DNA of 41,775 bases, taken from IMG/VR virus record IMGVR_UViG_3300002461_000190. The stretch is one strand, 5' to 3'. Position 1 is the first letter of the stretch. Each line of letters opens with the position of its first letter. This DNA is from a virus. A program made the translations under genes and the position numbers. The notes beneath the pieces are model-generated. The model ran no database searches. It saw only the letters and a program-made list of their open reading frames with translations, and was not told where the DNA came from. Shown piece after piece: positions 95 to 41,775 of the stretch.

Positions 95-1562
95 CGTCAT
101 GCGGGGCCGCGTCCCTTCGACGACGATCACGCCGGACGATATGATCGCCTCTGACGATCCCAGAGGGGAAATGTTCGAACTGACCCGGCAACAGACGACC
201 GACCTTCCGCTTGCGCTGAAATGGGCGGTTGTGCGGTCGGATGAAGATTACGATCCGGCCATGGTCGAAGCCCGGCGGATCACGACGGACACGACCAGAA
301 CCGCCGCCGAGTCCTTCCCCGTGGCCGTCCCGCCGGTCGAGGCGGAACGCCGTTGCAAGCGCGCATTGTTCGAAGCATGGGTCGGGATCGAAAACCTGAT
401 CTTCGCCTTGCCGCCGTCCCGCATGGCCCTGGACCCGACCGACGTTATCCTTTTCGATCACGATGGGCGGCGGACGGAATTCAGGATTCAGACGACGGCG
501 GACGAAGTGTCCCGGCGCCTTGAAGGGATCAGACAGGATCGCTTCGCCTATGACCTTCCGCCGGGCAAGGCGCGTCCGTCGGGCCTTCTTCCCCCGACGA
601 CCTTCGGCCCGCCGAATGTTGCGTTCATGGACATTCCGCAACTGACCGACGCGATCCCGGCCTATCAACCCTATATCGCGGGCGACGCCGACCCATGGCC
701 GGGAAGCCTTGCGGTCGTCCGTAGCCCAGCCCTGGACGGCTTCACCCTTCAGACCTTGGTCAACCGGCGGGCGACCATGGGAACGCTTGTCGCGGACCTT
801 CCGCGCGGCGTCTTCGGCTACTTCGACCATAACGAAATGATCGTCGACGTCGGGGTCGGGGCGCTTGCCAGCGTGACCGACGTCCAGCTTTTCGGCGGCG
901 CGAACGCCTTCGCGGTCGAAGTGGCGCCGGGCCTTTGGGAAATCCTTCAGGCCGGACAGATCGAACTGATCGACGTCAAGCGATACCGCATGACGCGGCT
1001 TCTTCGGGGCCAGAAGGGGTCAGAACATCGCATGGCGTCGCCCGCGCCCGCTGGCGCCCGCGTCGTCGCCCTGGACCTGTCGGTCTATCCGCTTCCGGTC
1101 GCGGACGTCGAAGTCGGCTTGCCGTTCAACTGGCGAGTCGGCCCGGCGCCCAGGCCGATCAGTGACGACTCCTATATCGCGACCGCCTTCACGCCAGCGG
1201 GCGAGGGCTTGCGCCCGTTCGCGCCCTGTCACGTCGGGCAACCGGCGCGCGAAGGTCACACGCCGGGCGACTACCTGATCCACTGGAAACGGCGGGATCG
1301 GGCGCTATCGGCGGACTCCTGGGAGTCCGAAGAAATCGTTATGTCGGAAGCGTCGGAAGCTTACGAAGTCGATATCCTGAACGGGACGACCGTTGTCCGG
1401 ACCTTGACGACGGCGGTCCCGTCGGTCCTCTATACCGGGGCCATGCAGATCGCGGACTTCGGAAGCTTGCGGGGGCCTGGAACCCAAGTTCCGATCCGCG
1501 TCTATCAGATATCGGCGCGGCTTGGTCGCGGCGCGCCAAAAAATGAGGTTCTGACCTTCTAA
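1..1562 (+). CDS. Host-specificity / tail-tip protein (RcGTA g15-like), C-terminal part of the gene that starts at 38942 and crosses the junction
   Basis: The frame is continuous through the overlap (..YAIAALESPRTSAATLARHFGFDGLESDGKVRFVMRGRV..). The ORF-track entry 99..1562 is the same frame. Stop TAA is at 1560-1562. Confidence 0.85.
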   Translation, partial: IAALESPRTSAATLARHFGFDGLESDGKVRFVMRGRVPSTTITPDDMIASDDPRGEMFELTRQQTTDLPLALKWAVVRSDEDYDPAMVEARRITTDTTRTAAESFPVAVPPVEAERRCKRALFEAWVGIENLIFALPPSRMALDPTDVILFDHDGRRTEFRIQTTADEVSRRLEGIRQDRFAYDLPPGKARPSGLLPPTTFGPPNVAFMDIPQLTDAIPAYQPYIAGDADPWPGSLAVVRSPALDGFTLQTLVNRRATMGTLVADLPRGVFGYFDHNEMIVDVGVGALASVTDVQLFGGANAFAVEVAPGLWEILQAGQIELIDVKRYRMTRLLRGQKGSEHRMASPAPAGARVVALDLSVYPLPVADVEVGLPFNWRVGPAPRPISDDSYIATAFTPAGEGLRPFAPCHVGQPAREGHTPGDYLIHWKRRDRALSADSWESEEIVMSEASEAYEVDILNGTTVVRTLTTAVPSVLYTGAMQIADFGSLRGPGTQVPIRVYQISARLGRGAPKNEVLTF

Positions 1563-2527
1563 TGGAAACGGTCCTGAATTTGTTCATGGCGCGACACTTA
1601 AGTCAGCGACAAGCCGAACGGGCTATGGAATTCATTCTGGCCCCGGAAGAATTTCAATTTAGGGCATGGGAGGAAGCTTTTCTGCGGGCGATCCTCATTG
1701 ACGGCATGAAGCTGGAAAAGGCTGAGCGCAAGTTCAAGTTGCCGCACAGATCGGCTAAAGCATTCATGGCGCGACTTCTGGAAATGGCCAAGGAAGAAGT
1801 TCGCCCCTGTGCCCCAATCCCGGAAGATTCGGAAGGCATCGGCGAGGATTACGCCGATCTTTTGCGGCGTGACGCCCGGAATGACGTCCAGACCTTAGTC
1901 TATCAGCTTTCGCTTGGCCCGCTTCAGGCGAAGTTTCTTGTGATCCTAGAAGCAGCGGAAGGGCGGATGGTTCACAAGGATAGGATGATGCTGGCACTTT
2001 ATGGCGACCGGAACCATGATGACACGCCGTCAACCCGGATCATCGATTCCGTTGTCTGTGCGACACGGAAGAAGATTGCCGGAACCGGCTTGCGGATCGA
2101 GAGACGCGACGGCGGCTTCGTGCTAATCGGCAAACTGGACAACGCCCGCCCGCACCTGTCGTCCTGTCCGCCGCCGCGCGAATCTGTTGGCCTTGGAGGC
2201 GATCCTGCCCGGCTGGCGCATGTATGTGGCCTTGATCCGGTTCAAATCCTGACCTTGGCGGCAGAATTCCGGCTGGCCCCGTTCGAAGCCCGCGTTCTGG
2301 CGATTCTGAAGAATGCAATCGTGACCCCAACGCCGTTGAACTATGTCCTTGCCGCCCTTGATTACAAGCGGCGCGGCGAAATTGTGTCCAGAGTTGGCCT
2401 TTCGGTCTGTCTTTGTAAGCTTCGCAAGAAACTAAAGCCGTTCGGCGTGGGTATTAGAAGCGTTGGCGGAAGCAATCATGCGGATGGTGCAATCGTGCTG
2501 AAATGGCCGGACGAAGCTTGGGAATGA
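1562..2527 (+). CDS. Receiver-less DNA-binding protein with two tandem OmpR/PhoB-type winged-helix (Trans_reg_C-like) modules and an N-terminal HTH-like segment
   Basis: Two segments fit the OmpR C-terminal pattern: LSLGPLQAKFLVILEAAEGRMVHKDRMMLALYGD..TRIIDSVVCATRKKIAGTGLRIERRDGGFVL and FRLAPFEARVLAILKN..VSRVGLSVCLCKLRKKLKPFGVGIRSVGG. The ATG overlaps the g15 stop (TAATG). The region is about 47-50% GC by hand count on two 60-nt lines. Confidence 0.6.
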   Translation: METVLNLFMARHLSQRQAERAMEFILAPEEFQFRAWEEAFLRAILIDGMKLEKAERKFKLPHRSAKAFMARLLEMAKEEVRPCAPIPEDSEGIGEDYADLLRRDARNDVQTLVYQLSLGPLQAKFLVILEAAEGRMVHKDRMMLALYGDRNHDDTPSTRIIDSVVCATRKKIAGTGLRIERRDGGFVLIGKLDNARPHLSSCPPPRESVGLGGDPARLAHVCGLDPVQILTLAAEFRLAPFEARVLAILKNAIVTPTPLNYVLAALDYKRRGEIVSRVGLSVCLCKLRKKLKPFGVGIRSVGGSNHADGAIVLKWPDEAWE

Positions 2528-2569
2528 GTTTGGCGCGCCTTAGTTGACTGTGGTAGCATGGACAACACA

Positions 2570-2597
2570 TTGGATAGGGTCGCCCACCAGATATAGG
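2570..2597 (+). promoter_or_regulatory. Possible sigma70-type promoter for the lysis cassette (TTGGAT-N16-TATAGG)
   Basis: Hexamers read directly in the intergenic gap between 2527 and 2687. They are a weak match only. Confidence 0.25.
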
Positions 2598-2686
2598 GGA
2601 AGACGCCATGATCGCCCTTGCATTCTGTCCCCACCTATGGTTGAAAGAGGGGGCAACCGCGAACCGCCTAAAGAGGGGAATCCGGC

Positions 2687-3046
2687 GTGGCCGATCCGAA
2701 CCCGCCGCCCGATCTGGTCGGATGGCTTTTCACCCCGGAAGGCAAGGCGGCAATCGCTGGCGCGGCTGGCGGAATTGTCCGATGGGTCACGCTTCGGGAA
2801 CATTGGCGGGACGGGCTTCTTTCGCTTCTGGTCGGCGCGATTTGCGCGATCTACCTGGGACCGCTGGTCGCCCCGTTGCTGGAACCGACAATCGGGAAGA
2901 TCGCCCCGGACTCGGACGGCGCGGGCTTTTCGTCGTTCGTCGTCGGCTTGGCCGGGATCAGCCTTTCGGGCTTCCTGATCGACTTGATCCGCGCCCGTCG
3001 GGCCGGGACCAAGGGGCGCCGCAATGAACCGCGCGATCCTGAATAA
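2687..3046 (+). CDS. Holin candidate
   Basis: GTG start with SD AGAGGGGA 7 nt upstream. Hydrophobic segments LLSLLVGAICAIYLGPLVAPLL and FSSFVVGLAGISLSGFLIDLI, with a basic C-terminal tail RARRAGTKGRRNEPRDPE. It lies immediately upstream of the endolysin. Confidence 0.6.
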   Translation: MADPNPPPDLVGWLFTPEGKAAIAGAAGGIVRWVTLREHWRDGLLSLLVGAICAIYLGPLVAPLLEPTIGKIAPDSDGAGFSSFVVGLAGISLSGFLIDLIRARRAGTKGRRNEPRDPE

Positions 3047-3134
3047 GATGATCCGGCGCGAAGCCCTTTACTGGACTATTGGCCTTTTTGGCGGGATCAT
3101 GTATCTTGCCGCGACGTCCATTCTGGGAAGCTGA
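3024..3134 (+). CDS. 36-aa single-TM peptide overlapping the holin 3' end (holin partner or antiholin candidate)
   Basis: Hand translation gives MNRAILNKMIRREALYWTIGLFGGIMYLAATSILGS followed by a stop. It is below the ORF-track size cutoff. Confidence 0.3.
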   Translation: MNRAILNKMIRREALYWTIGLFGGIMYLAATSILGS

Positions 3135-3149
3135 AAAGGGGCTTAGGCC

Positions 3150-3779
3150 ATGACCTACACCGTCCGCGATCAACAGGCCCGTTGCGCCGCCCTGGGCTTC
3201 TGGCCCGGCCCTATCGACGGGAAGCTGGGCAAGCGGACCAGCGCCGCGATTGAGGCGGCGACCGAGTTCCAGCGCGAACGCGGCAAGCCCCTGTTTCATC
3301 CGTCCGGCCTTCACCGCGTCCACTGGCACTGGACTGTCGGTTGGCACAAGCCGAACCCGGCGGACCGGAAGCACTATCACGCCATTTTCACGGGCGCGGG
3401 CGAAGAAGTCCTTCTTCACGATTGGGACAAGCTTCTGGCCCATACGCTGAAGGCGAATACCGGCGCGATCGGGCTTTCGCTTTGCGGCATGGTCGGGGCC
3501 AATGAACGGCCCTTCGACCATGGCCCGGAACCGATCACCGAAGCCGCGCTGGCGGCGCTGGCGGTCCGGACGGCGAAGCTTTGCGTCCAGTTCGATATCC
3601 CGGTTTCGCGCTGGTCGACCCTGAGTCATTCGGAAATTCAGCCGTCGCTTGCGATCCCGCAGCGCCAGAAGTGGGATATCAACTGGTTCCCCGGCCTGGA
3701 CAAGCCGACGGACCCGATCACCGCCGGGGACCATATCCGCGCCATGGTTCGCAAGGAACTGGTTCGGTTGGCACAATGA
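3150..3779 (+). CDS. Endolysin: peptidoglycan-binding domain plus N-acetylmuramoyl-L-alanine amidase (PGRP/Amidase_2-like)
   Basis: The N-terminal LGFWPGPIDGKLGKRTSAAIEAATEFQRERG fits the PG_binding_1 pattern. The rest (HRVHWHWTVG..HYHAIF..AHTLKANTGAIGLSLCG..LSHSEI) is amidase-like. Confidence 0.7.
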   Translation: MTYTVRDQQARCAALGFWPGPIDGKLGKRTSAAIEAATEFQRERGKPLFHPSGLHRVHWHWTVGWHKPNPADRKHYHAIFTGAGEEVLLHDWDKLLAHTLKANTGAIGLSLCGMVGANERPFDHGPEPITEAALAALAVRTAKLCVQFDIPVSRWSTLSHSEIQPSLAIPQRQKWDINWFPGLDKPTDPITAGDHIRAMVRKELVRLAQ

Positions 3780-3979
3780 CCGACCGGGCGGACCTGGAAC
3801 GGCCCGGATCGGGCGTCTATGCAAGCGGGGGCGTCCTTCGCCCGCGTGTCGTTTTCCATGTGACCGGCGGACCCGCGACGGAAGATCGTCCGCGTCCGCT
3901 GATCCATACCGTCGACGGCCCCGGCGCAAGCCGGAACATGATGATTCAAGCAACCATGAAAAGGGGAAGTGAAGAATGA
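3776..3979 (+). CDS. Hypothetical protein in the lysis cassette
   Basis: ATGA overlaps at both junctions (3776-3779 and 3976-3979). I recognised no family. Confidence 0.35.
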   Translation: MTDRADLERPGSGVYASGGVLRPRVVFHVTGGPATEDRPRPLIHTVDGPGASRNMMIQATMKRGSEE

Positions 3980-4245
3980 AGCTTACGCTGAACGGGTTTC
4001 ACAATATCGCAAACGTCCTGATCGCGCTTTCGGCGGGGATCACCGCCCTTCTGATCGCGACCGGATGCGAACCGCTTGCGACCGGGGCGCTGGATTGCGC
4101 GAAGTCGTGGCTTGATCCGAAATGGACCGCCGCCTTTGCTTCTGGGCTGGCAGTTGTGAAGTCGGTCGCGAACGTCGTCCGCGACGGCTTCGGCGGTCTT
4201 TTCAAGGTTCAGCCGCCGGTCGTCCAGCCCCCGGCCCCGAAGTGA
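3976..4245 (+). CDS. Small membrane protein in the lysis cassette
   Basis: N-terminal TM segment IANVLIALSAGITALLIATG. It is translationally coupled on both sides. Confidence 0.5.
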   Translation: MKLTLNGFHNIANVLIALSAGITALLIATGCEPLATGALDCAKSWLDPKWTAAFASGLAVVKSVANVVRDGFGGLFKVQPPVVQPPAPK

Positions 4246-4502
4246 ACGGCTGGCCCGTTTACGCCCTGGTTTTCCTGACCATCGCCGCGCTTGTCGTGGC
4301 GCTGGGCAGGGCCAGCCGGGGCAAGGGCGCGGCACAGGCGGAAACCAAGGCCCAGGAGCGCCAGAACGACGCGCTTCGGGCCGATCAGGGGGAAGCGAAT
4401 GAGATTGAGCGCAAAGCCGATCTGGCCCGCCGTGGCGGGGTTTCTGCTATTGACGTCCTGCGAAAAGCCGGTCGCCTTGGAAAGCGCCCCGGCGCGGACT
4501 GA
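4242..4502 (+). CDS. i-spanin candidate (Rz-like)
   Basis: GTG start overlaps the upstream stop (GTGA). It has an N-terminal TM segment WPVYALVFLTIAALVVALG followed by a charged helical region. The o-spanin candidate overlaps its 3' part. Confidence 0.55.
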   Translation: MNGWPVYALVFLTIAALVVALGRASRGKGAAQAETKAQERQNDALRADQGEANEIERKADLARRGGVSAIDVLRKAGRLGKRPGAD

Positions 4503-4653
4503 GTCCTTCAAGACAGGTTGCCGCGAACTGGCCCGCGACTTCCCGGAATGGTATGAAGACGACCCGCCGGAACGCCTGGAACAAGGCGCGCGGTTCGTCC
4601 TGGTCTTCGAAGCGGTCTGTCCTGGATCGCTGGCCCAGAGCGGGCCGCAATAG
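4399..4653 (+). CDS. o-spanin candidate (Rz1-like lipoprotein)
   Basis: MRLSAKPIWPAVAGFLLLTSC has a signal peptide and an L-T-S-C lipobox. SD GGGGGAAG lies upstream. The gene starts inside the i-spanin in another frame. Confidence 0.6.
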   Translation: MRLSAKPIWPAVAGFLLLTSCEKPVALESAPARTESFKTGCRELARDFPEWYEDDPPERLEQGARFVLVFEAVCPGSLAQSGPQ

Positions 4654-4662
4654 ACAGGATCG

Positions 4663-4691
4663 GCCCGGCGCTGGGCAAGCTGGCGCCGGGC
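4663..4691 (+). terminator. Perfect 9-bp stem hairpin after the spanins (GCCCGGCGC..GCGCCGGGC), with no T-tract
   Basis: Read directly from the sequence. The lack of a U-tract makes terminator function uncertain. Confidence 0.3.
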
Positions 4692-4740
4692 ATAACCAAG
4701 CGGCGCCGCTGGCCCGCAACATCAGGAAGGAACGGAACCC

Positions 4741-4929
4741 ATGGCAAAGAAACCGAAGACGGTCTTCAAGGTCTTTGACGGCGCCGGAAACGTCGTCGGC
4801 GAGGCTGACAACGCGAACGACGCGGACGCCGTTGTCGAAGATCACCGCGCCGCCGGACGCGGGCCGTCCTACGTCCGGGAAGTCCCGGTCGAAGAACCCG
4901 AAGCGCCCGTCGAAGGCGCGGGGCAATAA
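4741..4929 (+). CDS. Hypothetical small protein
   Basis: SD GGAAGGA upstream of the ATG. The composition is protein-like. Confidence 0.5.
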   Translation: MAKKPKTVFKVFDGAGNVVGEADNANDADAVVEDHRAAGRGPSYVREVPVEEPEAPVEGAGQ

Positions 4930-4960
4930 GCCCAGAAGGGCAGGGGATGGGGGCAGGATC

Positions 4961-4999
4961 GGGGCGCGAGGGGAAACCTTCGCGCCCCGAAACTATTTT
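4961..4999 (+). terminator. Rho-independent terminator candidate
   Basis: GGGGCGCGA..TCGCGCCCC stem followed by GAAACTATTTTG. Confidence 0.5.
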
Positions 5000-5007
5000 G
5001 CGGCGAC

Positions 5008-5044
5008 CCCCTTGCAAGCAAGCATAAGCAAGCATAGGTTAGGG
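5008..5044 (+). promoter_or_regulatory. 37-bp promoter-like element, copy A (TTGCAA-N17-TAGGTT, containing a tandem AGCAAGCATA decamer)
   Basis: CCCCTTGCAAGCAAGCATAAGCAAGCATAGGTTAGGG is identical to 6036-6072. An ATG lies 6 nt after the putative -10. Confidence 0.55.
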
Positions 5045-5046
5045 AT

Positions 5047-5223
5047 ATGAAAGCCAAGATGGGAGTCGACCAGATGAAAGACCCGGACAACCTTCCAGCC
5101 GATCTGGCCCGGCGCATTCGCGAAGATCACGCCGCATATTTTGCGGCGGAACGGGCGCGCGACGCCGAACGCCTGCAAGAGTATCAGGCCGATTGCCTTG
5201 CATCATGGGAAGGCCGGAAATGA
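5047..5223 (+). CDS. Hypothetical 58-aa protein, first gene of accessory cassette A
   Basis: Hand translation gives MKAKMGVDQMKDPDNLPADLARRIREDHAAYFAAERARDAERLQEYQADCLASWEGRK. The stop overlaps the next ATG (ATGA). Confidence 0.45.
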   Translation: MKAKMGVDQMKDPDNLPADLARRIREDHAAYFAAERARDAERLQEYQADCLASWEGRK

Positions 5224-5393
5224 CCGCGTTCGATCTGTTTCAACGGGCTACCTGTCAGATCGCCGAAGGCGCCCGCGCCGCCGCGATCAAGTCGCTGGAC
5301 AAGGCGATCCAGAAGATCGACGCAAACGGGGTCGACGCGGAATTGCGCCCCGATCTGGTCGACTTGCGCGATAGCCTGAAGGTGACGGCGTGA
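5220..5393 (+). CDS. Hypothetical 57-aa protein
   Basis: The internal ATG (MTAFDLFQ..) of ORF 5193..5393 overlaps the upstream stop. Confidence 0.45.
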   Translation: MTAFDLFQRATCQIAEGARAAAIKSLDKAIQKIDANGVDAELRPDLVDLRDSLKVTA

Positions 5394-6022
5394 TCGCCGC
5401 CCTTTTCGTCGACGACGGCGGAAGCTATTTTGGACTTTCCGGCGTTGACCCGTGGCCGGAAGCCCGCGACGCCCGCCGCTACGCTGGGCCGTGGCCCGCC
5501 GTGGCGCACCCCCCTTGCCAGCGATGGGGCAAGCTTTGGGCTGGTCAGCCGCTTTACATAAAGCAGACCGGAATCCGGAAGGTGAAGGGCGACGACGACG
5601 GTTGCTTCGCCGCCGGTCATGCCGCGATCAAGAAATGGGGCGGCATTCTGGAACACCCATGGGGGAGTCACGCTTGGGCGCACTTCGGGCTGAACAAGCC
5701 GCCCCGCGCTGGCGGATGGATCAACGCCGACTTCGAAGGCGGCTGGACCTGTTGCGTCGAACAAGGCCGATATGGTCATTACGCGCGCAAACCGACGCTT
5801 CTTCTGGCGTATCATTGCGACCTTCCGGAACTGGATTGGGGGATCAGCGAGGCGCGCCTTGATCCGGCTATCGTCGAACGCTTGGGGCTGGAAAGAGCGA
5901 AGCGCCGGGGCGAGGTCGCCGCTAAGGGCGGCGGAACCGATAGCGCGCCCAGGATCGGGACGCCGGTCCCGTTTCGCGATCTTCTGATCGGGATCGCAAG
6001 GACCGCAAAGCCGCCGCGCTGA
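5390..6022 (+). CDS. Protein of unknown function with C5-cytosine-methyltransferase-like motifs
   Basis: ALFVDDGGSY (motif I-like), VAHPPCQRWG (PCQ motif IV-like) and GILEHPWGS (ENV motif VI-like position). GTGA overlap with the upstream gene. Confidence 0.45.
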   Translation: MIAALFVDDGGSYFGLSGVDPWPEARDARRYAGPWPAVAHPPCQRWGKLWAGQPLYIKQTGIRKVKGDDDGCFAAGHAAIKKWGGILEHPWGSHAWAHFGLNKPPRAGGWINADFEGGWTCCVEQGRYGHYARKPTLLLAYHCDLPELDWGISEARLDPAIVERLGLERAKRRGEVAAKGGGTDSAPRIGTPVPFRDLLIGIARTAKPPR

Positions 6023-6035
6023 TTTTCTTCGCTTG

Positions 6036-6072
6036 CCCCTTGCAAGCAAGCATAAGCAAGCATAGGTTAGGG
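6036..6072 (+). promoter_or_regulatory. 37-bp promoter-like element, copy B
   Basis: Exact copy of 5008-5044. It is followed by AGGGGAACAAGG and an ATG at 6081. Confidence 0.55.
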
Positions 6073-6080
6073 GAACAAGG

Positions 6081-6536
6081 ATGAAAGGAACCCACACCAT
6101 GAACCGCCCTTACGGATACCATGTTTTGCAGCGCCTTCAGGAAGCCCGCGACGCGATCCGGTCGCCCGCCGGTCATTCGCCAGCCCTGATCGCCGATCAC
6201 CTTCGGACTATGGACTTGCACGGGACGGACGCCGACCAGCTTCGGGCGAACGACTTCCGCCGCGATCATGGGCTTCCGGATCAGTTCAGCATGATCCCCA
6301 AGCCCGGCCCGGTCATTGCCGCCCCGAAGTGGACGTCGGAAGGCCCTTTCAGCGCGGCGGACAGGTTCCCGAAGCTTCGGCCCCCGGCAAGCCCTAAGCC
6401 GCGCGCTGGCGGCGTTCTGGCGCGCCTTCTGGCCCGCGTCGGGCTGATCCATACCGGCGGCACCAGCGCGCGTTCTGGGCTTCGCCGTGGCGAGGTCGCG
6501 GCGATCCTGAAATCCGAAACCGAAGGGAACGAATGA
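6081..6536 (+). CDS. Hypothetical protein, first gene of accessory cassette B
   Basis: ORF directly downstream of promoter copy B. An alternative ATG is at 6099. Confidence 0.5.
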   Translation: MKGTHTMNRPYGYHVLQRLQEARDAIRSPAGHSPALIADHLRTMDLHGTDADQLRANDFRRDHGLPDQFSMIPKPGPVIAAPKWTSEGPFSAADRFPKLRPPASPKPRAGGVLARLLARVGLIHTGGTSARSGLRRGEVAAILKSETEGNE

Positions 6537-6787
6537 TCATGCCCCATATCAGCAAACGCGACTTGGCCCGCCTTCGCGAAATTGCCCGAACCGCTACCAT
6601 GGAAACGGCGGGCTTTTGCTTCCCCGCTGAAAAGATCACGGCGCCGCGTGATACGTTCGGCCCCATGGAAGAAATGACCATCGACGAACTGATCAAGGTC
6701 CGGACCAAGATTTGGCGGGATACTTGGATCGTCGACCCCCTTACGTCGATCATAAACAAGATCGAAGGGTTCGGGGGTCAGGAATGA
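6533..6787 (+). CDS. Hypothetical protein
   Basis: Start overlaps the upstream stop. The composition is protein-like. Confidence 0.5.
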   Translation: MIMPHISKRDLARLREIARTATMETAGFCFPAEKITAPRDTFGPMEEMTIDELIKVRTKIWRDTWIVDPLTSIINKIEGFGGQE

Positions 6788-14843: not shown

Positions 14844-15074
14844 CTATTCGGCGGCGGACTCAAGGTTCGTGATCGCTTCGTCGGCGGCGTCATAGGCCGA
14901 TTGAAGGGCGTCGGCGGCGGCTTCGGATGCTTGCCCCCGGTCGCTTTGCTGAAGGCTTTCCGGCATGGCGTCGAAGGCGTCGCGTTCTTCCGACTGAAGG
15001 TCTTCAATCTGACCGCGAAGGTCTTCAAGGGCTTCTTTGATCTTTTCGATCCGGGCACGGCGGTCTTTGTTCAT
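14844..15074 (-). CDS. 76-aa acidic coiled-coil-like protein, copy 1 (paralogue of 23632..23862); first gene of the long leftward operon
   Basis: MNKDRRARIEKIKEALEDLRGQIEDLQSEERDAFDAMPESLQQSDRGQ.. It differs from copy 2 at 3 residues. Confidence 0.7.
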   Translation of the reverse strand: MNKDRRARIEKIKEALEDLRGQIEDLQSEERDAFDAMPESLQQSDRGQASEAAADALQSAYDAADEAITNLESAAE

Positions 15075-15251
15075 GGTCGTTCGTCCCTTTGGTTTGGCCG
15101 CGCTGGGCGGCGGTTGGGGCGAACGTCGCGCGGGCTATGCCAAGCAAGCGTCGTCGGTCGCCTAGCAAGCAATCTAAGGACGAACGACCAATCCGTCAAC
15201 CGGGCGCAAGCGGTCCTTGACAAAAAAAGGCCATGCGTCCAATTTGCGCGA
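15075..15251. promoter_or_regulatory. Divergent early control region
   Basis: Non-coding gap between divergent operons. It contains TTGACA(15217)-N17-CAATTT(15240) with an ATG 6 nt later, AAGCAAGC at 15142 and AGCAAGCA at 15164, and a 12-bp perfect inverted repeat at 15075-15086 and 15178-15189. Confidence 0.6.
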
Positions 15252-23631: not shown

Positions 23632-23862
23632 TCATTCGGCGGCGGATTCAAGCGAACTGATCGCTTCGTCGGCGCTGTCATAGGCGGACTGAAGGGCGTC
23701 GGCGGCGGCTTCGGACGCTTGCCCCCGGTCGCTTTGCTGAAGGCTTTCCGGCATGGCGTCGAAGGCGTCGCGTTCTTCCGACTGAAGGTCTTCGATTTGA
23801 CCGCGAAGGTCTTCAAGGGCTTCTTTGATCTTTTCGATCCGGGCGCGGCGATCTTTGTTCAT
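23632..23862 (-). CDS. 76-aa acidic protein, copy 2 (paralogue of 14844..15074); first gene of the leftward mini-operon
   Basis: About 93% nucleotide identity to copy 1 (16 mismatches in 231 nt by hand alignment). Confidence 0.7.
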   Translation of the reverse strand: MNKDRRARIEKIKEALEDLRGQIEDLQSEERDAFDAMPESLQQSDRGQASEAAADALQSAYDSADEAISSLESAAE

Positions 23863-23943
23863 GGTCGTTCCTTTCGGGGTTTGACGATTGGCCTAGATTT
23901 TACCGGGGAAGTCGCCATAATGGCCAAGCCCGCCGGGTCGTGT

Positions 23944-23978
23944 AGCAAGCATATAAGCAAGCATTGCGACCAAGCAAG
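23944..23978. promoter_or_regulatory. AGCAAGCAT motif cluster upstream of terS
   Basis: AGCAAGCATA-t-AAGCAAGCAT-tgcgacc-AAGCAAG. It is related to the 37-bp elements at 5008 and 6036. Confidence 0.45.
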
Positions 23979-38481: not shown

Positions 38482-38942
38482 TCGGTCCAGACCGCCCGAA
38501 GATCGTCGCCAGCGCGCGTTCCTGGATCGGGACGCCCTACCATGACCAAGCGTCGGTCAAGGGCGCTGGCGTCGACTGTCTGGGCCTTGCGCGGGGCGTT
38601 TGGCGCGAAGTGATCGGCAAGGAACCGACCGCGATCCCGCCTTATTCGCGCGATTGGGGCGAGACACGCCCGACGGAAGTCCTTGCGGCTGGCGCGGCGC
38701 AATGGCTGGTCCCGATCCCGGTCGCTGAAGCCCTGGGCGGGTCCGTCATTCTGTTTCGCATGGTCCGGGGGGCTATCGCGAAGCACGTCGGAATCCTGAC
38801 CTGGGAAGGGACGTTCGTTCATGCCTTCGAAGGGATCGGCGTCGTCGAAGAACCGCTGACAAAGGCTTGGCGTCGGCGGATCGCCTTCGCCTTCGATTTT
38901 CCGGCGACCGCCGGGGCGGCTGAAGCTGAAGGGGAAGTCTAA
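38478..38942 (+). CDS. NlpC/P60 cell-wall peptidase (RcGTA g14-like)
   Basis: ..SWIGTPYHDQASVKGAGVDCLGLARGVW..AKHVGIL..FVHA.. Confidence 0.8.
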   Translation: MIGPDRPKIVASARSWIGTPYHDQASVKGAGVDCLGLARGVWREVIGKEPTAIPPYSRDWGETRPTEVLAAGAAQWLVPIPVAEALGGSVILFRMVRGAIAKHVGILTWEGTFVHAFEGIGVVEEPLTKAWRRRIAFAFDFPATAGAAEAEGEV

Positions 38943-41775
38943 TGGCGACGCTTGTTCTGGGCGCGGTCGGGTCTGCGGTCGGCGGCTTGTTCGGCGGAAC
39001 GATCCTGGGCCTTAGCGGCGCCGCGATTGGCGGTTTCATCGGGTCGACCATTGGTTCCGTCGTCGACCAGTGGATCGTCGGATCGTTCGCGCCAAACCAG
39101 AACATTCAAGGGGCGAGGCTGGACGCGCTTCGGGTCACGTCGTCGACTGAAGGTTCGGTCATTCCCCGGATATACGGGCGGATGCGGGTCGGCGGGAACC
39201 TGATCTGGGCGACCGACTTTCTGGAAACGGTCAAGACCGAAGAACAAGGCGGCGGCAAGGGCGGCGGCGGCAAGGTCACGACGACGACCTATCTTTATTC
39301 GGCGAACTTCGCGATTGCGCTTTGTGAGGGGCCTATAACCGGGATCGGCCGGATTTGGGCGGATGGAAAGCCCCTGGATCGAACCGGCGTGACAATGCGG
39401 GTCTATCTGGGCGGCGAAGACCAGTTCCCCGATCCGCTGATCGTCGCCAAGGTCGGCGCGAACCGTGCCCCCGCCTATCGCGGGACGGCTTACGTCGTCT
39501 TTGACAACATGCCGCTTGAAGCGTTCGGGAACCGGATTCCGCAACTGACCTTCGAAGTCTTCAGCCCGCTTGCGGACGAAGACACGGCGGAAGGAAAGGT
39601 CAAGGCCGTTACCATGATCCCGGCGTCGGGCGAGTTCGCCTATTCTACGTCGGTCATAAAGAAGACCGGCGCCAGCACCGGATTCGCGGGCGCGTCGGCG
39701 GGGTCGACCGTGGCGATCAACGCAAACGCACAAGCGGACGTCGCGGACTTTGTGGAATCGCTGGATCGGATGGAAAGCCTAGCCCCGGCGGTCGATAGCG
39801 TTTCGCTGGTCGTGTCTTGGTTCGGGACCGATCTTCGGGCCGGGGATTGCGAATTCAAGCCAAAGGTCGACCGTAGGTTTGCCAATGACGGCGGCTTCTA
39901 TAATTACGACGCCATTGCAAACCTGCATTATATTTCCTACGTCGACGGGCTATTTCCGCCGCCCGTCGGTCTTCTTCCCCAAAAGTCAAAACAGCCCTTC
40001 CGCGTCCAGAATACAAGCGGCGGTCCAATTACCGTCGGCGTCTATTATGATGATGAATATTGGTATTCGATAAACCTTGCCGCTGGCGCGACGGCGACGG
40101 TAAACGCCCCGCCCCCGTCTTTTAACCAATGGGTCAAACTTGAGTCCGTCGGCGGTCAGGACTTCAGGGCTTACAGCGACACCGCCGGGCAAGTCGTCGT
40201 TTCAACGTCGCCCTATAGCTGGCAAGTCGGACCGACCGTCCGGGCGACGGCGGACGTCGTTTCATATAGGGAAGGCAAGCCCGCCTTTGGCGGAACGCCA
40301 GCCGACCGAAGCGTCGTCGAAGCGATCACCGAACTTCAGGCGAGGGGAAAGCGGGTCACGTTTTATCCATTCGTCATGATGGATATTCCGGAAACCAACA
40401 CGCTTCCCGATCCCTATTCCGACGAAGCACTGACAGAGGGCCAGCCCCGCTATCCATGGCGGGGCCGGATCACTTGTTCCCCGGCAGCGGGCTTTGTCGG
40501 ATCGGTCGATCAGACCGCGACCGCCGCCGCCCAGGTCGCCGCCTTGTTCGGCAGCGTGACGCCAGCTGACTTCGGGATCACGGGGACGACTGTCAACTAT
40601 TCGGGACCGGCGGGCGATTGGGGATATCGCCGGATGATCCTTCACTATGCTTATCTTTGCGCCGCCGTCGGGGGCGTCAACGCCTTCCTGATCGGAAGCG
40701 AATTGCGGGGGATTACCACGATCCGCGACGCCGCCGGGAACTATCCCGGAGTCGCGGCGCTGATCACGCTGGCGGGCGAGGTCAAGACGATCCTGGGGCC
40801 GGAAGTGAAGGTCAGCTATGCGGCGGACTGGTCGGAATACTTCGGACACCACCCGCAAGACGGGACCGGCGACGTCTTTTTCCACCTGGACCCGCTTTGG
40901 TCGAACGCCAATATCGACTTTATCGGAATCGACAATTACATGCCGGTTTCCGACTGGCGCGACGGCTTCGATCACCTGGACGCCACGGCTTGGCCGTCGA
41001 TCTATGACCGCGACTATCTGCGGTCGAACGTCGAAGGGGGCGAGGGCTTCGACTGGTTCTATGCGACCCTTGCGGATCGCGTCGACCAGATCAGGACGCC
41101 GATCACCGATGGGGCCGGGAAGCCATGGGTCTTCCGCTACAAGGACTTGCGCGCATGGTGGCAGAACCAGCATTTCAACCGGCCCGGCGGCGTCGAAGCA
41201 CTGACCCCGACCGCTTGGGTTCCGGAGTCGAAGCCGTTCTGGTTTACTGAAATCGGTTGCCCGGCGGTCGACCGGGGGACGAACCAGCCGAACGTCTTCA
41301 GCGATCCGAAATCGTCCGAAAGCTTGGTCCCCTACTTTTCGCGGGGATACCGGGACGACGCGATCCAGCGGGCCTATCTGGAATCCGTTCTGGGCTACTG
41401 GTCCGAAGCCGCGAACAACCCGACGTCCGCCGTCTATGGCGAACCGATGATCACGACCGACGAGTCGGCGGTCTGGACCTGGGACGCCCGGCCCTATCCG
41501 TTCTATCCCGAACGGACCGACGTTTGGTCGGACGGGCCGAATTGGGCGCTGGGCCATTGGCTGACCGGGCGCCTGGGCGCGGTTTCCTTGGCGGCGCTGG
41601 TCAGGAACCTTTGCGTCCGCGCCGGAATGCCTGAAGCCCAGATCGACGTTACCGACCTTTACGGGTCAATCGAAGGCTACGCGATAGCCGCCCTGGAAAG
41701 CCCCCGGACGTCCGCCGCGACGCTGGCGCGCCACTTCGGATTCGATGGGCTGGAAAGCGACGGGAAGGTCCGCTT
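38942..41775 (+). CDS. Host-specificity / tail-tip protein (RcGTA g15-like), N-terminal part; the gene continues across the junction to 1562 (about 1433 codons in total)
   Basis: Hand translation gives MATLVLGAVGSAVGGLFGGTILGLSGAAIGGFIGSTIGSVVDQWIV..RIYGRMRVGGNLIWATDF..YLYSANFAIALCEGPI.. followed by a GTA TIM-barrel-like region. There is no stop before the window end, so the ORF track omits it. Confidence 0.85.
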   Translation, partial: MATLVLGAVGSAVGGLFGGTILGLSGAAIGGFIGSTIGSVVDQWIVGSFAPNQNIQGARLDALRVTSSTEGSVIPRIYGRMRVGGNLIWATDFLETVKTEEQGGGKGGGGKVTTTTYLYSANFAIALCEGPITGIGRIWADGKPLDRTGVTMRVYLGGEDQFPDPLIVAKVGANRAPAYRGTAYVVFDNMPLEAFGNRIPQLTFEVFSPLADEDTAEGKVKAVTMIPASGEFAYSTSVIKKTGASTGFAGASAGSTVAINANAQADVADFVESLDRMESLAPAVDSVSLVVSWFGTDLRAGDCEFKPKVDRRFANDGGFYNYDAIANLHYISYVDGLFPPPVGLLPQKSKQPFRVQNTSGGPITVGVYYDDEYWYSINLAAGATATVNAPPPSFNQWVKLESVGGQDFRAYSDTAGQVVVSTSPYSWQVGPTVRATADVVSYREGKPAFGGTPADRSVVEAITELQARGKRVTFYPFVMMDIPETNTLPDPYSDEALTEGQPRYPWRGRITCSPAAGFVGSVDQTATAAAQVAALFGSVTPADFGITGTTVNYSGPAGDWGYRRMILHYAYLCAAVGGVNAFLIGSELRGITTIRDAAGNYPGVAALITLAGEVKTILGPEVKVSYAADWSEYFGHHPQDGTGDVFFHLDPLWSNANIDFIGIDNYMPVSDWRDGFDHLDATAWPSIYDRDYLRSNVEGGEGFDWFYATLADRVDQIRTPITDGAGKPWVFRYKDLRAWWQNQHFNRPGGVEALTPTAWVPESKPFWFTEIGCPAVDRGTNQPNVFSDPKSSESLVPYFSRGYRDDAIQRAYLESVLGYWSEAANNPTSAVYGEPMITTDESAVWTWDARPYPFYPERTDVWSDGPNWALGHWLTGRLGAVSLAALVRNLCVRAGMPEAQIDVTDLYGSIEGYAIAALESPRTSAATLARHFGFDGLESDGKVR
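41682..41775. repeat. Terminal overlap, identical to 1-94
   Basis: Direct comparison. Confidence 0.95.

Follow-up and report, generated by a model that had tools for sequence, protein, structure and literature searches.

The viral stretch analysed here (IMG/VR record IMGVR_UViG_3300002461_000190; 41,775 nucleotides, hereafter the window) carries, directly behind a tail-tip gene of the type found in gene transfer agents (GTAs), a 321-codon gene whose predicted product, hereafter the regulator, is a receiver-less, transcription-factor-like protein. Sequence profiles and structure models point to three DNA-binding-type modules: an N-terminal helix-turn-helix (HTH) of the GafA/GafZ type (the N-module), a CtrA-derived winged helix (wH1) and a second, divergent winged helix (wH2). 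The regulator is a rare, doubled variant of a small phage family with the architecture N-wH, found in siphophages of the Rhodobacterales, several of which have GTA-like tail genes, and in the window's clade it replaces the DUF2793 tail-fibre module in an exchangeable slot between the tail-tip gene and the holin gene. A CtrA-related phage open reading frame (ORF) was known already; the doubled N-wH-wH form of the family is new. In the Rhodobacterales, CtrA and GafA regulate the GTAs; how a domesticated phage came to be controlled in this way has been called a mystery (Hynes 2016, PMC5026251). Because members of the family join an HTH like that of GafA/GafZ to a winged helix like that of CtrA within a single phage polypeptide, and in several lineages are encoded right behind a GTA-type tail-tip gene, the family is a concrete, testable candidate for the ancestral GTA regulatory module. 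The doubled variant in addition offers a natural test of whether two covalently linked winged helices can take the place of the phosphorylation-driven dimerisation of the OmpR family.

The gene, its start and its base composition

An earlier note on this DNA (the original prediction) had described a single 321-amino acid gene after the host-specificity gene, and we confirm this ORF and its junction with the upstream gene:

1562..2527, plus strand: receiver-less regulator gene, 321 amino acids, stop codon at 2525-2527; a single ORF in the ORF list
1560..1564, plus strand: TAATG overlap, in which the host-specificity stop and the regulator ATG share one base; the sequence reads ttcTAATGgaa

The context of the start reads ...ACC TTC TAA TGG AAA..., and the upstream partner of the overlap is the tail host-specificity ORF (487 amino acids, cut). 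We read this TAATG, as the original prediction did, as translational coupling of the regulator to the tail-tip gene; the same overlap, or direct adjacency, is also present in L003, L007, L006 and L012. The ATG at 1562 is supported by the N terminus METV(L/V)xLF, which is kept in all four full-length homologues. A public protein collection holds a 179-amino acid product for the locus (1988-2527, protein P0002), starting at internal Met143; because the homologues conserve the regulator's N terminus, the full 321-amino acid reading is the right one.

The G+C content (GC) of the ORF is 56.2%, and that of 1562-2680 is 56.1%, against 63.9% for the genome. The 47-50% first estimated was thus too low, although the direction and location of the deviation were right: the ORF is the minimum among all 966-nt windows of the sequence (mean 63.9%, s.d. 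2.0%; about -3.8 s.d.), with single 60-nt lines across the region varying from 45 to 70%. At third codon positions (GC3) the regulator has 0.61, compared with 0.76 +/- 0.03 (minimum 0.70) in 20 other plus-strand genes, which places it 7.7 points (GC) and 15 points (GC3) under the genome. Each of four metagenomic homologues has a GC deficit of 4-12 points in the same gene.

Three modules without a receiver

Checks by hidden Markov model (HMM), structure prediction and GC and codon usage returned a Trans_reg_C match just below the gathering score, a winged-helix fold and flanks of different composition. The resulting layout of the regulator is as follows:

1562..1792, plus strand: N-module, five-helix HTH, residues 1-77, related to the C-terminal HTH of DUF6456 (GafA/GafZ)
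1793..1876, plus strand: acidic disordered linker, residues 78-105; predicted local distance difference test (pLDDT) <50 for residues 78-106, net charge -6
1877..2146, plus strand: wH1, residues 106-195, CtrA-derived, OmpR-type, from Pfam, NCBIfam, profile and CtrA alignment
about 2036-2074, plus strand: wH1 recognition helix RIIDSVVCATRKK
2147..2203, plus strand: linker 2, residues 196-214, Pro-rich and not conserved; pLDDT <50 at 201-210, 0-42% identity within the clade
2204..2524, plus strand: wH2, residues 215-321, divergent, from hhalign, PDB profile, structure model and invariant columns
about 2390-2443, plus strand: wH2 recognition helix VSRVGLSVCLCKLRKKLK

An AlphaFold2 (AF2) model of the full regulator, computed from 22 family sequences, has a mean pLDDT of 81.5 and contains three well-folded modules (residues 1-77, 106-195 and 215-320) joined by disordered linkers. 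The second and third share the same order of helices and strands, a pattern H-H-(bridge)-H-H-hairpin that occurs twice, at 106-189 and 226-314, with pLDDT mostly 85-95. The two OmpR-type winged helices of the original prediction are upheld by this repeat, by the Trans_reg_C match of wH1 (E 4.6e-5) and by profile-profile alignment of wH2. Its N-terminal HTH-like segment and missing receiver are likewise borne out: residues 1-77 are modelled as an all-helical HTH module where a receiver would be expected, and the regulator has no Pfam match to Response_reg (PF00072) at E<=10.

The N-module is modelled with a pLDDT of about 89-96 per 10-residue block over residues 1-70. Its signature is LPHRSAKA, in which R63, S64, A65 and K66 do not vary among 22 family members; the C-terminal signature of DUF6456, G-W-P-A-R-S-A-K, has the counterpart K-L-P-H-R-S-A-K in the regulator. 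A local GafZ-like HMM matches residues 45-75 (E 1.3e-3), and the N-module profile, run against a library of 1.84 billion proteins, picks up chromosomal DUF6456 proteins (E 1e-5 to 1e-3), the matched part, for example in Roseibium, being the GWPARSAK helix-turn-helix near the C terminus. DUF6456 scores are 14.6 bits for P0003 and 17.1 bits for P0004, and reach 26.8-32.3 bits in distant phage members, over positions ~86-135 only. A sequence-profile search of the PDB with the N-module found nothing. A Phage_TAC_16 tail-assembly-chaperone match to residues 4-35 (E 0.042, 14 bits against a cutoff of 27) was taken as noise.

For wH1, the Trans_reg_C cutoff is passed by P0001 (28.3 bits), P0004 (26.8 bits) and the wider family (41-59 bits). 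The sole NCBIfam match of the regulator is to the CtrA of Rhodobacterales (NF045991; 18.5 bits over residues 124-173, with an equivalog cutoff of 350 bits), and the nearest profile matches of wH1 outside the family are all CtrA. A Pfam scan leaves wH2 undetected in the window protein's clade. Aligned with hhalign, however, a five-sequence wH2 profile matches the family wH1 with 98.9% probability (E 2.2e-17, 84 columns), and the best PDB profile match of wH2 is a PhoB-family regulator in the correct register (E 0.27); wH2 is thus homologous to wH1-type domains, a second copy of the same domain type. Foldseek matched OmpR/PhoB-family DNA-binding domains (YycF, PhoP, SaeR, CovR, PhoB, ToxR and CadC) with probability 1.0 and root mean square deviations (r.m.s.d.) of 2.0-2.7 A over 74-78 residues, covering one of the two winged helices without showing which. 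Effector domains of the OmpR/PhoB type begin with a four-stranded beta-sheet ahead of helix 1. In the regulator a helix (106-116 and 226-236) is modelled where this sheet would be, a feature of the model only.

The extreme C terminus (2507-2524, residues 316-321) reads W-P-x-E-A-W in five of five clade members, despite strong divergence elsewhere in wH2, and is a possible protein-interaction motif. P0024 and P0168 have a similar WP after the wing of their first winged helix.

Recognition helices related to CtrA

The motifs quoted in the original prediction, TRIIDSVVCATRKKI and CKLRKKLKP, turn out to be the two recognition helices. That of wH1, RIIDSVVCATRKKI, is identical to the helix of CtrA (KIIDVFVCKLRKKL) at 8 of 14 positions, compared with 13 of 14 for the helix of phage RDJL3 (KIIDVFVCKMRKKL); it keeps the IID-V-C--RKK core of CtrA and differs by four substitutions in the specificity region. 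The helix of wH2 reads VGLSVCLCKLRKKL, and its CKLRKKL is identical to the distal half of the CtrA recognition helix, the relatives of 40-55% identity having WKTGQKL or YKTNLKL. The net charge of wH2 is +6 in the window protein and +4 in P0001, compared with -3 to -5 in P0003, P0004 and P0005. Since its recognition helices have diverged from CtrA, the regulator is expected to recognise a site different from the CtrA box.

A doubled member of a phage family

The original prediction had called a triple DNA-binding module in this position unusual; the protein is no isolated case but belongs to a phage family that includes proteins of RDJL-type roseophages, Paracoccus phage vB_PmaS-R3 and RcD Rhodobacter phages. 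An exhaustive N-module HMM search of 1.84 billion proteins yielded 111 representative clusters, the strong matches carrying the N-module at the N terminus and the weak ones being chromosomal DUF6456 proteins. The architectures comprise 57 N-wH, 31 N-wH with a C-terminal tail and 9 N-wH-wH. Among 5.8 billion clustered proteins there are only four full-length homologues of the regulator (72, 55, 40 and 39% identity). A profile search adds about 25 phage-type proteins having the N-module and the first winged helix, further matches all being CtrA; these members include the 'CzcR-like response regulator' of RDJL3 and of vB_PmaS-R3 and a 201-amino acid protein of the 68-kb RcD-cluster Rhodobacter phages, with a family member in all 20 RcD-type phages matched. 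By tblastn the regulator matches RDJL3 and vB_PmaS-R3 over residues 1-190 (E 5e-16), profile E-values going down to 1e-111, and local HMMs recover its N-module at E 2e-33 and its winged helix at E 9e-35. The regulator thus has the arrangement that defines the family, a collinear N-module (80 amino acids) and CtrA-type winged helix at the N terminus of a protein of ~190-320 amino acids. Outside the window's clade, the doubled members P0024, P0168 and P0183 have two canonical Pfam Trans_reg_C domains each. Genes of the family are at present mislabelled as 'CzcR-like response regulator' or as hypothetical proteins.

A CtrA-related ORF of RDJL-phi-1 was noted by Hynes 2016 (PMC5026251) and Fogg 2019 (PMC6363796). 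The literature found by searching holds no functional characterisation of that ORF, and no account of the DUF6456-type N-module, of the doubled winged helix or of an alternation with fibre genes in RcC-type phages.

The 'CzcR-like' proteins of RDJL3 (L002 9001-9840) and vB_PmaS-R3 (L001 9001-9801) have an N-terminal DUF6456-type HTH and a near-exact CtrA recognition helix. A GafA-like profile matches each of them at two places, and the HTH at their C terminus resembles the one at the N terminus of GafA-like proteins. They look like rearranged GafA-plus-CtrA chimeras, and their present annotation is misleading.

An exchangeable slot behind the tail-tip gene

Positions 1-94 of the window are identical to 41682-41775, so that the assembly is circular (or terminally redundant), its unit measuring 41,681 bp. 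The neighbourhood of the regulator comprises the following genes:

38930..41775, plus strand: host-specificity gene (GTA-type, g15-like), N-terminal part; homologue domains GTA_TIM / Phage-tail_3 / Rcc01698_C
99..1562, plus strand: C-terminal 487 codons of the same host-specificity gene, upstream neighbour of the regulator
2687..3046, plus strand: holin-like gene, PHROG holin family, 85% amino acid identity to RcBaka holin gp26
3150..3779, plus strand: endolysin of the Amidase_2 type, PHROG endolysin E 3.5e-35, Pfam Amidase_2 in homologues

Because the assembly is circular, the host-specificity gene continues from 41775 into 1-1562; it is 72% identical to RcBaka gp22 over 1,034 aligned amino acid residues. 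The large terminase subunit (TerL) is 90% identical to those of eleven phages of Rhodobacter capsulatus YW1 (RcBaka, RcKemmy and others; about 41 kb, 64% GC), namely the six named RcC-cluster phages of PMC8601537 and five later isolates, and a gene-by-gene comparison with RcBaka reveals genome-wide synteny at 55-93% amino acid identity, the regulator being among the few differences. The window genome is thus an RcC-cluster-type Rhodobacter phage.

These eleven closest cultured phages are without the regulator. In them the slot between the host-specificity gene and the holin holds fibre-type genes of the DUF2793/Gly-rich kind, such as RcBaka gp23-25 and RcKemmy gp22 (DUF2793, glycine-rich). DUF2793 marks the rcc00171-type fibre, which normally follows the g15 homologue (PMC5026251). 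The gene-by-gene comparison found no homologues of the RcBaka gp23-25 fibre module anywhere in the window, and four metagenomic homologues of the regulator lie at exactly the same place. L003, L006 and L007 are likewise without the DUF2793/Gly-rich fibre module. The cargo runs from TAATG to about 2597; the final 90 bp ahead of the holin gene belong to the backbone, and the fibre slot of RcC-type phages is thus an exchange point for unrelated cargo. The low-GC island had been drawn to 2680; that end runs through non-coding spacer, of which about 2528-2597 does travel with the gene.

In the independently doubled P0024 (25% identical), too, the gene start overlaps a host-specificity stop; that GTA-type host-specificity gene has 46% identity to its counterpart in the window, and the gene after P0024 is a methylase, not a holin. 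Since relatives down to 40% identity share the same place and the same GC deficit, and P0024 stands behind a g15-like gene, the linkage to the tail tip is old and not a recent event in the window genome. The original prediction proposed a horizontally acquired regulator; a recent acquisition by the window genome does not fit these relatives. The moron position of the original prediction holds in so far as the slot is swappable and the GC deviates; no promoter or terminator belonging to the gene was found. Across relatives the regulator has 72/58/43% identity compared with 91-99/78-88/63-79% for its flanks, and is the fastest-evolving gene of the locus. There is no integrase among the window ORFs scanned or among the annotated RcBaka genes, and the lifestyle of the RcC cluster is given as undetermined (PMC8601537). 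A local profile run on all six-frame ORFs found no separate full-length GafA/GafZ gene in the window.

Spacer, promoters and candidate targets

Alignment A7 divides the non-coding interval before the holin gene into two parts:

2528..2597, plus strand: spacer travelling with the regulator, in regulator-bearing genomes only, ending in conserved CCACCAGATATAGGGG
2598..2686, plus strand: holin leader, backbone, conserved also in RcBaka and RcKemmy (without the regulator)

The ~90-nt holin leader contains invariant blocks, such as GGTTGAA, in all relatives, the neighbouring gene otherwise having about 74% nucleotide identity; no significant RNA fold was found in the leader. An RNA element in the spacer was rejected (fold z-score +1.2; no Rfam family anywhere in the window), as was the spacer motif CCAGATATAGGGG / ATAGGGGAA as a recurring operator, its other matches being only Shine-Dalgarno-like sequences. 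A scan of 1000-3200 for consensus sigma-70-like promoters found none, a consensus scan that alphaproteobacterial promoters may escape. No terminator flanks the regulator; two terminator-like matches lie inside the regulator and inside the holin gene. CtrA boxes were discarded as targets, TTAA-N7-TTAA occurring 0 times in the window at <=1 mismatch where 2.0 are expected; the motif is absent also from 18.5-kb stretches of vB_PmaS-R3 and RDJL3. PADLOC returned nothing meaningful for a defence-system component.

The window does contain a set of recurring promoter-like elements. The sequence CCCCTTGCAAGCAAGCATAAGCAAGCATAGGTTAGGG (TTGCAA-N17-TAGGTT), which includes the tandem 10-bp repeat AAGCAAGCAT, is present in two perfect copies, at 5008-5044 and 6036-6072. 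AGCAAGC occurs 11 times against 3.1 expected, 10 of the 11 on the plus strand, and forms pairs in two further intergenic stretches before plus-strand genes, at 15143/15164 (15143-15170), ahead of an operon starting near 15.2 kb (RcBaka gp59 homologue), and at 23944/23956 (23943-23964), upstream of the terS operon. These GCAAGCA-repeat elements are conserved in L006, RcBaka and RcKemmy and appear to be a promoter/operator family of the phage backbone. Although the elements had seemed ideally suited to tandem winged helices, we rejected them as operators of the regulator, because RcBaka and RcKemmy have the same elements without the gene. Since both the promoters and the holin leader are shared with relatives that are without the gene, the phage core does not need the regulator, which is compatible with a host-directed or accessory role.

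Relation to known regulators

The proteins of RDJL-phi-1, RDJL3, vB_PmaS-R3 and the RcD phages resemble the regulator in having a collinear homologous N-module and wH1, in lacking a receiver and in being borne by phages of Rhodobacterales; several of the family-bearing phages, for example RDJL3 and the L012 contig, have GTA-like tail genes. The RcD-cluster counterparts are annotated 'HTH DNA binding protein'. In RDJL3 and vB_PmaS-R3 the single winged helix has an almost exact CtrA recognition helix (13/14) and is followed by a sigma-region-4-like HTH, and in the RcD phages nothing follows. The regulator, in contrast, has wH2 in place of the sigma-70 region 4 / HTH_23-like tail and a diverged helix (8/14), and its genomic position differs from that of the RDJL3, vB_PmaS-R3 and RcD-type genes.

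Its wH1 is more closely related to CtrA than to other response regulators. Unlike CtrA, however, the regulator has neither receiver nor phospho-acceptor, has two winged helices per chain and scores far below the equivalog cutoff. With GafA and GafZ, respectively the activator of RcGTA and the anti-terminator of the Caulobacter GTA, it shares the DUF6456 HTH signature (W)P(A/H)RSAK in its N-module and an association with GTA-type structural genes. In contrast to these proteins, its match to DUF6456 is limited to the final ~50 of the 136 positions, and the HTH is N-terminal in the regulator and C-terminal in GafA/GafZ. A GafA-type N-terminal DnaA-like HTH was not detected in the regulator by local profile or Pfam, the central omega-binding region of GafA not having been searched for. 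GafA is a DUF6456 protein (PMC9765227 Table 1; PMC9638019). Binding at the core promoter is known for GafA-C and for GafZ. Both proteins also engage RNA polymerase: in GafA the contact runs through the central region, and GafZ is found in a complex with the polymerase and Nus factors (PMC9638019, PMC11150451). Activation or anti-termination of a GTA cluster and binding to RNA polymerase (omega, Nus) are reported as experimental properties of GafA/GafZ (PMC6363796, PMC9638019, PMC11150451).

ToxR, CadC and the SARPs/AfsR have, like the regulator, an OmpR-type winged helix without phosphorylation control, and Foldseek matches chains of ToxR, CadC and AfsR. Each of these proteins has a single winged helix attached to membrane, periplasmic or BTA/NB-ARC domains and binds in oligomeric form; we know of no receiver-less OmpR-type activator with tandem winged helices and a GafZ-type HTH. 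ScpB (a condensin subunit) and RepE (a plasmid initiator) have two winged helices per chain, like the regulator, and are the top Foldseek matches over about 200 columns. With r.m.s.d. values of 14-21 A they match in domain order alone, and are unrelated in sequence and function.

A proposed single-chain regulator and its alternatives

The best explanation overall, to which we would give about an even chance, is that of a late-made, constitutive accessory regulator with a single-chain pair of winged helices and the N-terminal HTH as a further contact. As the last cistron of the tail operon it would be made late, through translational coupling, and it would be constitutively active, since it contains nothing to phosphorylate. 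In regulators of the OmpR family, phosphorylation induces tandem dimers, which bind direct repeats. In the regulator, two covalent winged helices would replace this head-to-tail dimer of the OmpR/CtrA type, a monomer covering two neighbouring half-sites, and the GafZ-type HTH would provide a third contact, with DNA or RNA polymerase, at the promoter, as reported for GafA-C and GafZ. The regulator would be accessory because the backbone promoters and the lysis leader are shared with gene-less relatives; host genes or clade-specific sites are more likely targets than the core phage programme.

Several observations weigh against this explanation. The RKK motif of wH2 is lost in three of the five clade members (P0003, P0004 and P0005), in which wH2 is acidic; the single-chain dimer may therefore hold, at most, for the window genome and P0001, and DNA binding by all three modules is not assured. 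No binding site for the regulator was found, its DNA-binding mode and targets being what we infer, and late expression is deduced from gene position and the absence of consensus promoters in a simple scan. The AF2 model does not predict the geometry between domains (predicted template modelling score, pTM, 0.39). The Trans_reg_C match of wH1 (PF00486, residues 116-174), at 23.8 bits, falls short of the gathering score of 26.2, and DUF6456 (PF20057; 136 positions, cutoff 26.3 bits) has no match in the regulator at E<=10, membership resting on homologues and profiles while the window protein itself stays below Pfam thresholds. The best Foldseek matches of the N-module (single-sequence AF2 model, pLDDT 73) are KorA and sigma domain 4, all at E > 0.5, so that a sigma-region-4/KorA-like fold is only suggestive. 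All Foldseek E-values are >0.05, and no match reaches 0.001, the query being a loosely arranged model of three domains. Finally, the old tail-tip linkage could mean a function in the tail or late module and not an accessory one.

Another possibility, which we hold to be unlikely, is a phage-internal timing regulator that acts on the phage's own genome after translation of the tail operon, for instance to turn on or boost the lysis cassette just downstream, or to silence early transcription. It would suit a gene that is last in the tail operon, directly upstream of holin and endolysin, and that travels with a 70-bp spacer with conserved end CCACCAGATATAGGGG; in vB_PmaS-R3 and its relative L013 a member with a single winged HTH lies between early and lysis/packaging genes, the classical late-activator position, and none of the 20 RcD-type Rhodobacter phages matched is without a family member. 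RcBaka and RcKemmy, however, have the same holin leader and promoter family without the regulator, no repeated operator-like motif ties the spacer to other sites, and the spacer is without promoter consensus. We think it rather unlikely that only one C-terminal module, or neither, binds DNA, with wH2 serving as a protein-interaction or auto-regulatory domain that docks, for example, onto RNA polymerase, host CtrA or GafA, or wH1, and with the regulator acting as an adaptor or anti-activator. In favour of such a role, wH2 goes from a net charge of +6/+4 to one of -3...-5 within the clade, P0003-5 have TGQK/TNLK instead of RKK in the wH2 recognition helix, and conservation in wH2 is highest in the W-P-x-E-A-W tail and around helix 1, above that of the recognition helix. 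Yet in the window protein wH2 is the most basic module (+6), with a CKLRKKL of the CtrA type, and the doubled relatives P0024 and P0168 have two canonical Trans_reg_C domains.

A recently acquired classical moron, that is, an autonomous cassette with its own promoter (expressed, for example, from a prophage) and acting on host or competitor-phage DNA, would account for a gene that has the lowest GC and GC3 of the genome, evolves fastest in its locus and is missing from the closest cultured relatives, in a variable slot. It is improbable, given the same place and the same GC deficit down to 40% identity, the 25%-identical relative behind another g15-like gene, a start that overlaps the upstream stop with no promoter or terminator consensus, and the lack of an integrase among scanned window ORFs and annotated RcBaka genes. 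Distinctly improbable, in all its forms together, is the idea that the regulator is a single-chain, phosphorylation-independent mimic of the host GTA control pair, the activated CtrA dimer and the promoter-binding HTH of GafA, with which a phage that no longer has its DUF2793 tail-fibre module would switch on host GTA accessory loci, for example the rcc00171-type fibre or head-spike genes, or the wider CtrA regulon; in a weaker form, the family would preserve an ancestral phage regulator behind the dependence of GTAs on GafA and CtrA. If the mimic were real, the phage would be borrowing host-encoded parts or reprogramming the cell late in infection. We give least credence to the protein being no regulator at all and instead a tail-associated or assembly protein that uses winged-helix folds as a structural substitute in the fibre slot. 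Its place in the fibre-gene slot of the relatives, its coupling to the tail-tip gene and the weak chaperone match (residues 4-35, E 0.042) would agree with this, but that match is far under threshold (14 against 27 bits), each of the three modules is a homologue of transcription-factor DNA-binding domains, and in other phages family members lie away from tail genes.

Other variable and repeated regions

A second variable region lies after the endolysin gene, at ~3780-6540, where RcBaka gp30-31 and gp33-36 are without counterpart in the window; it carries other small plus-strand genes, which have the repeated promoter elements on their flanks. Elsewhere, a 237-nt direct repeat with 94% identity between its copies at 14846-15082 and 23634-23870 carries a minus-strand ORF of 76 codons (copy at 14844-15074), the 23.6-kb copy being just upstream of, and divergent from, the plus-strand terS operon. 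The repeat may represent a duplicated small regulator or promoter-proximal gene.

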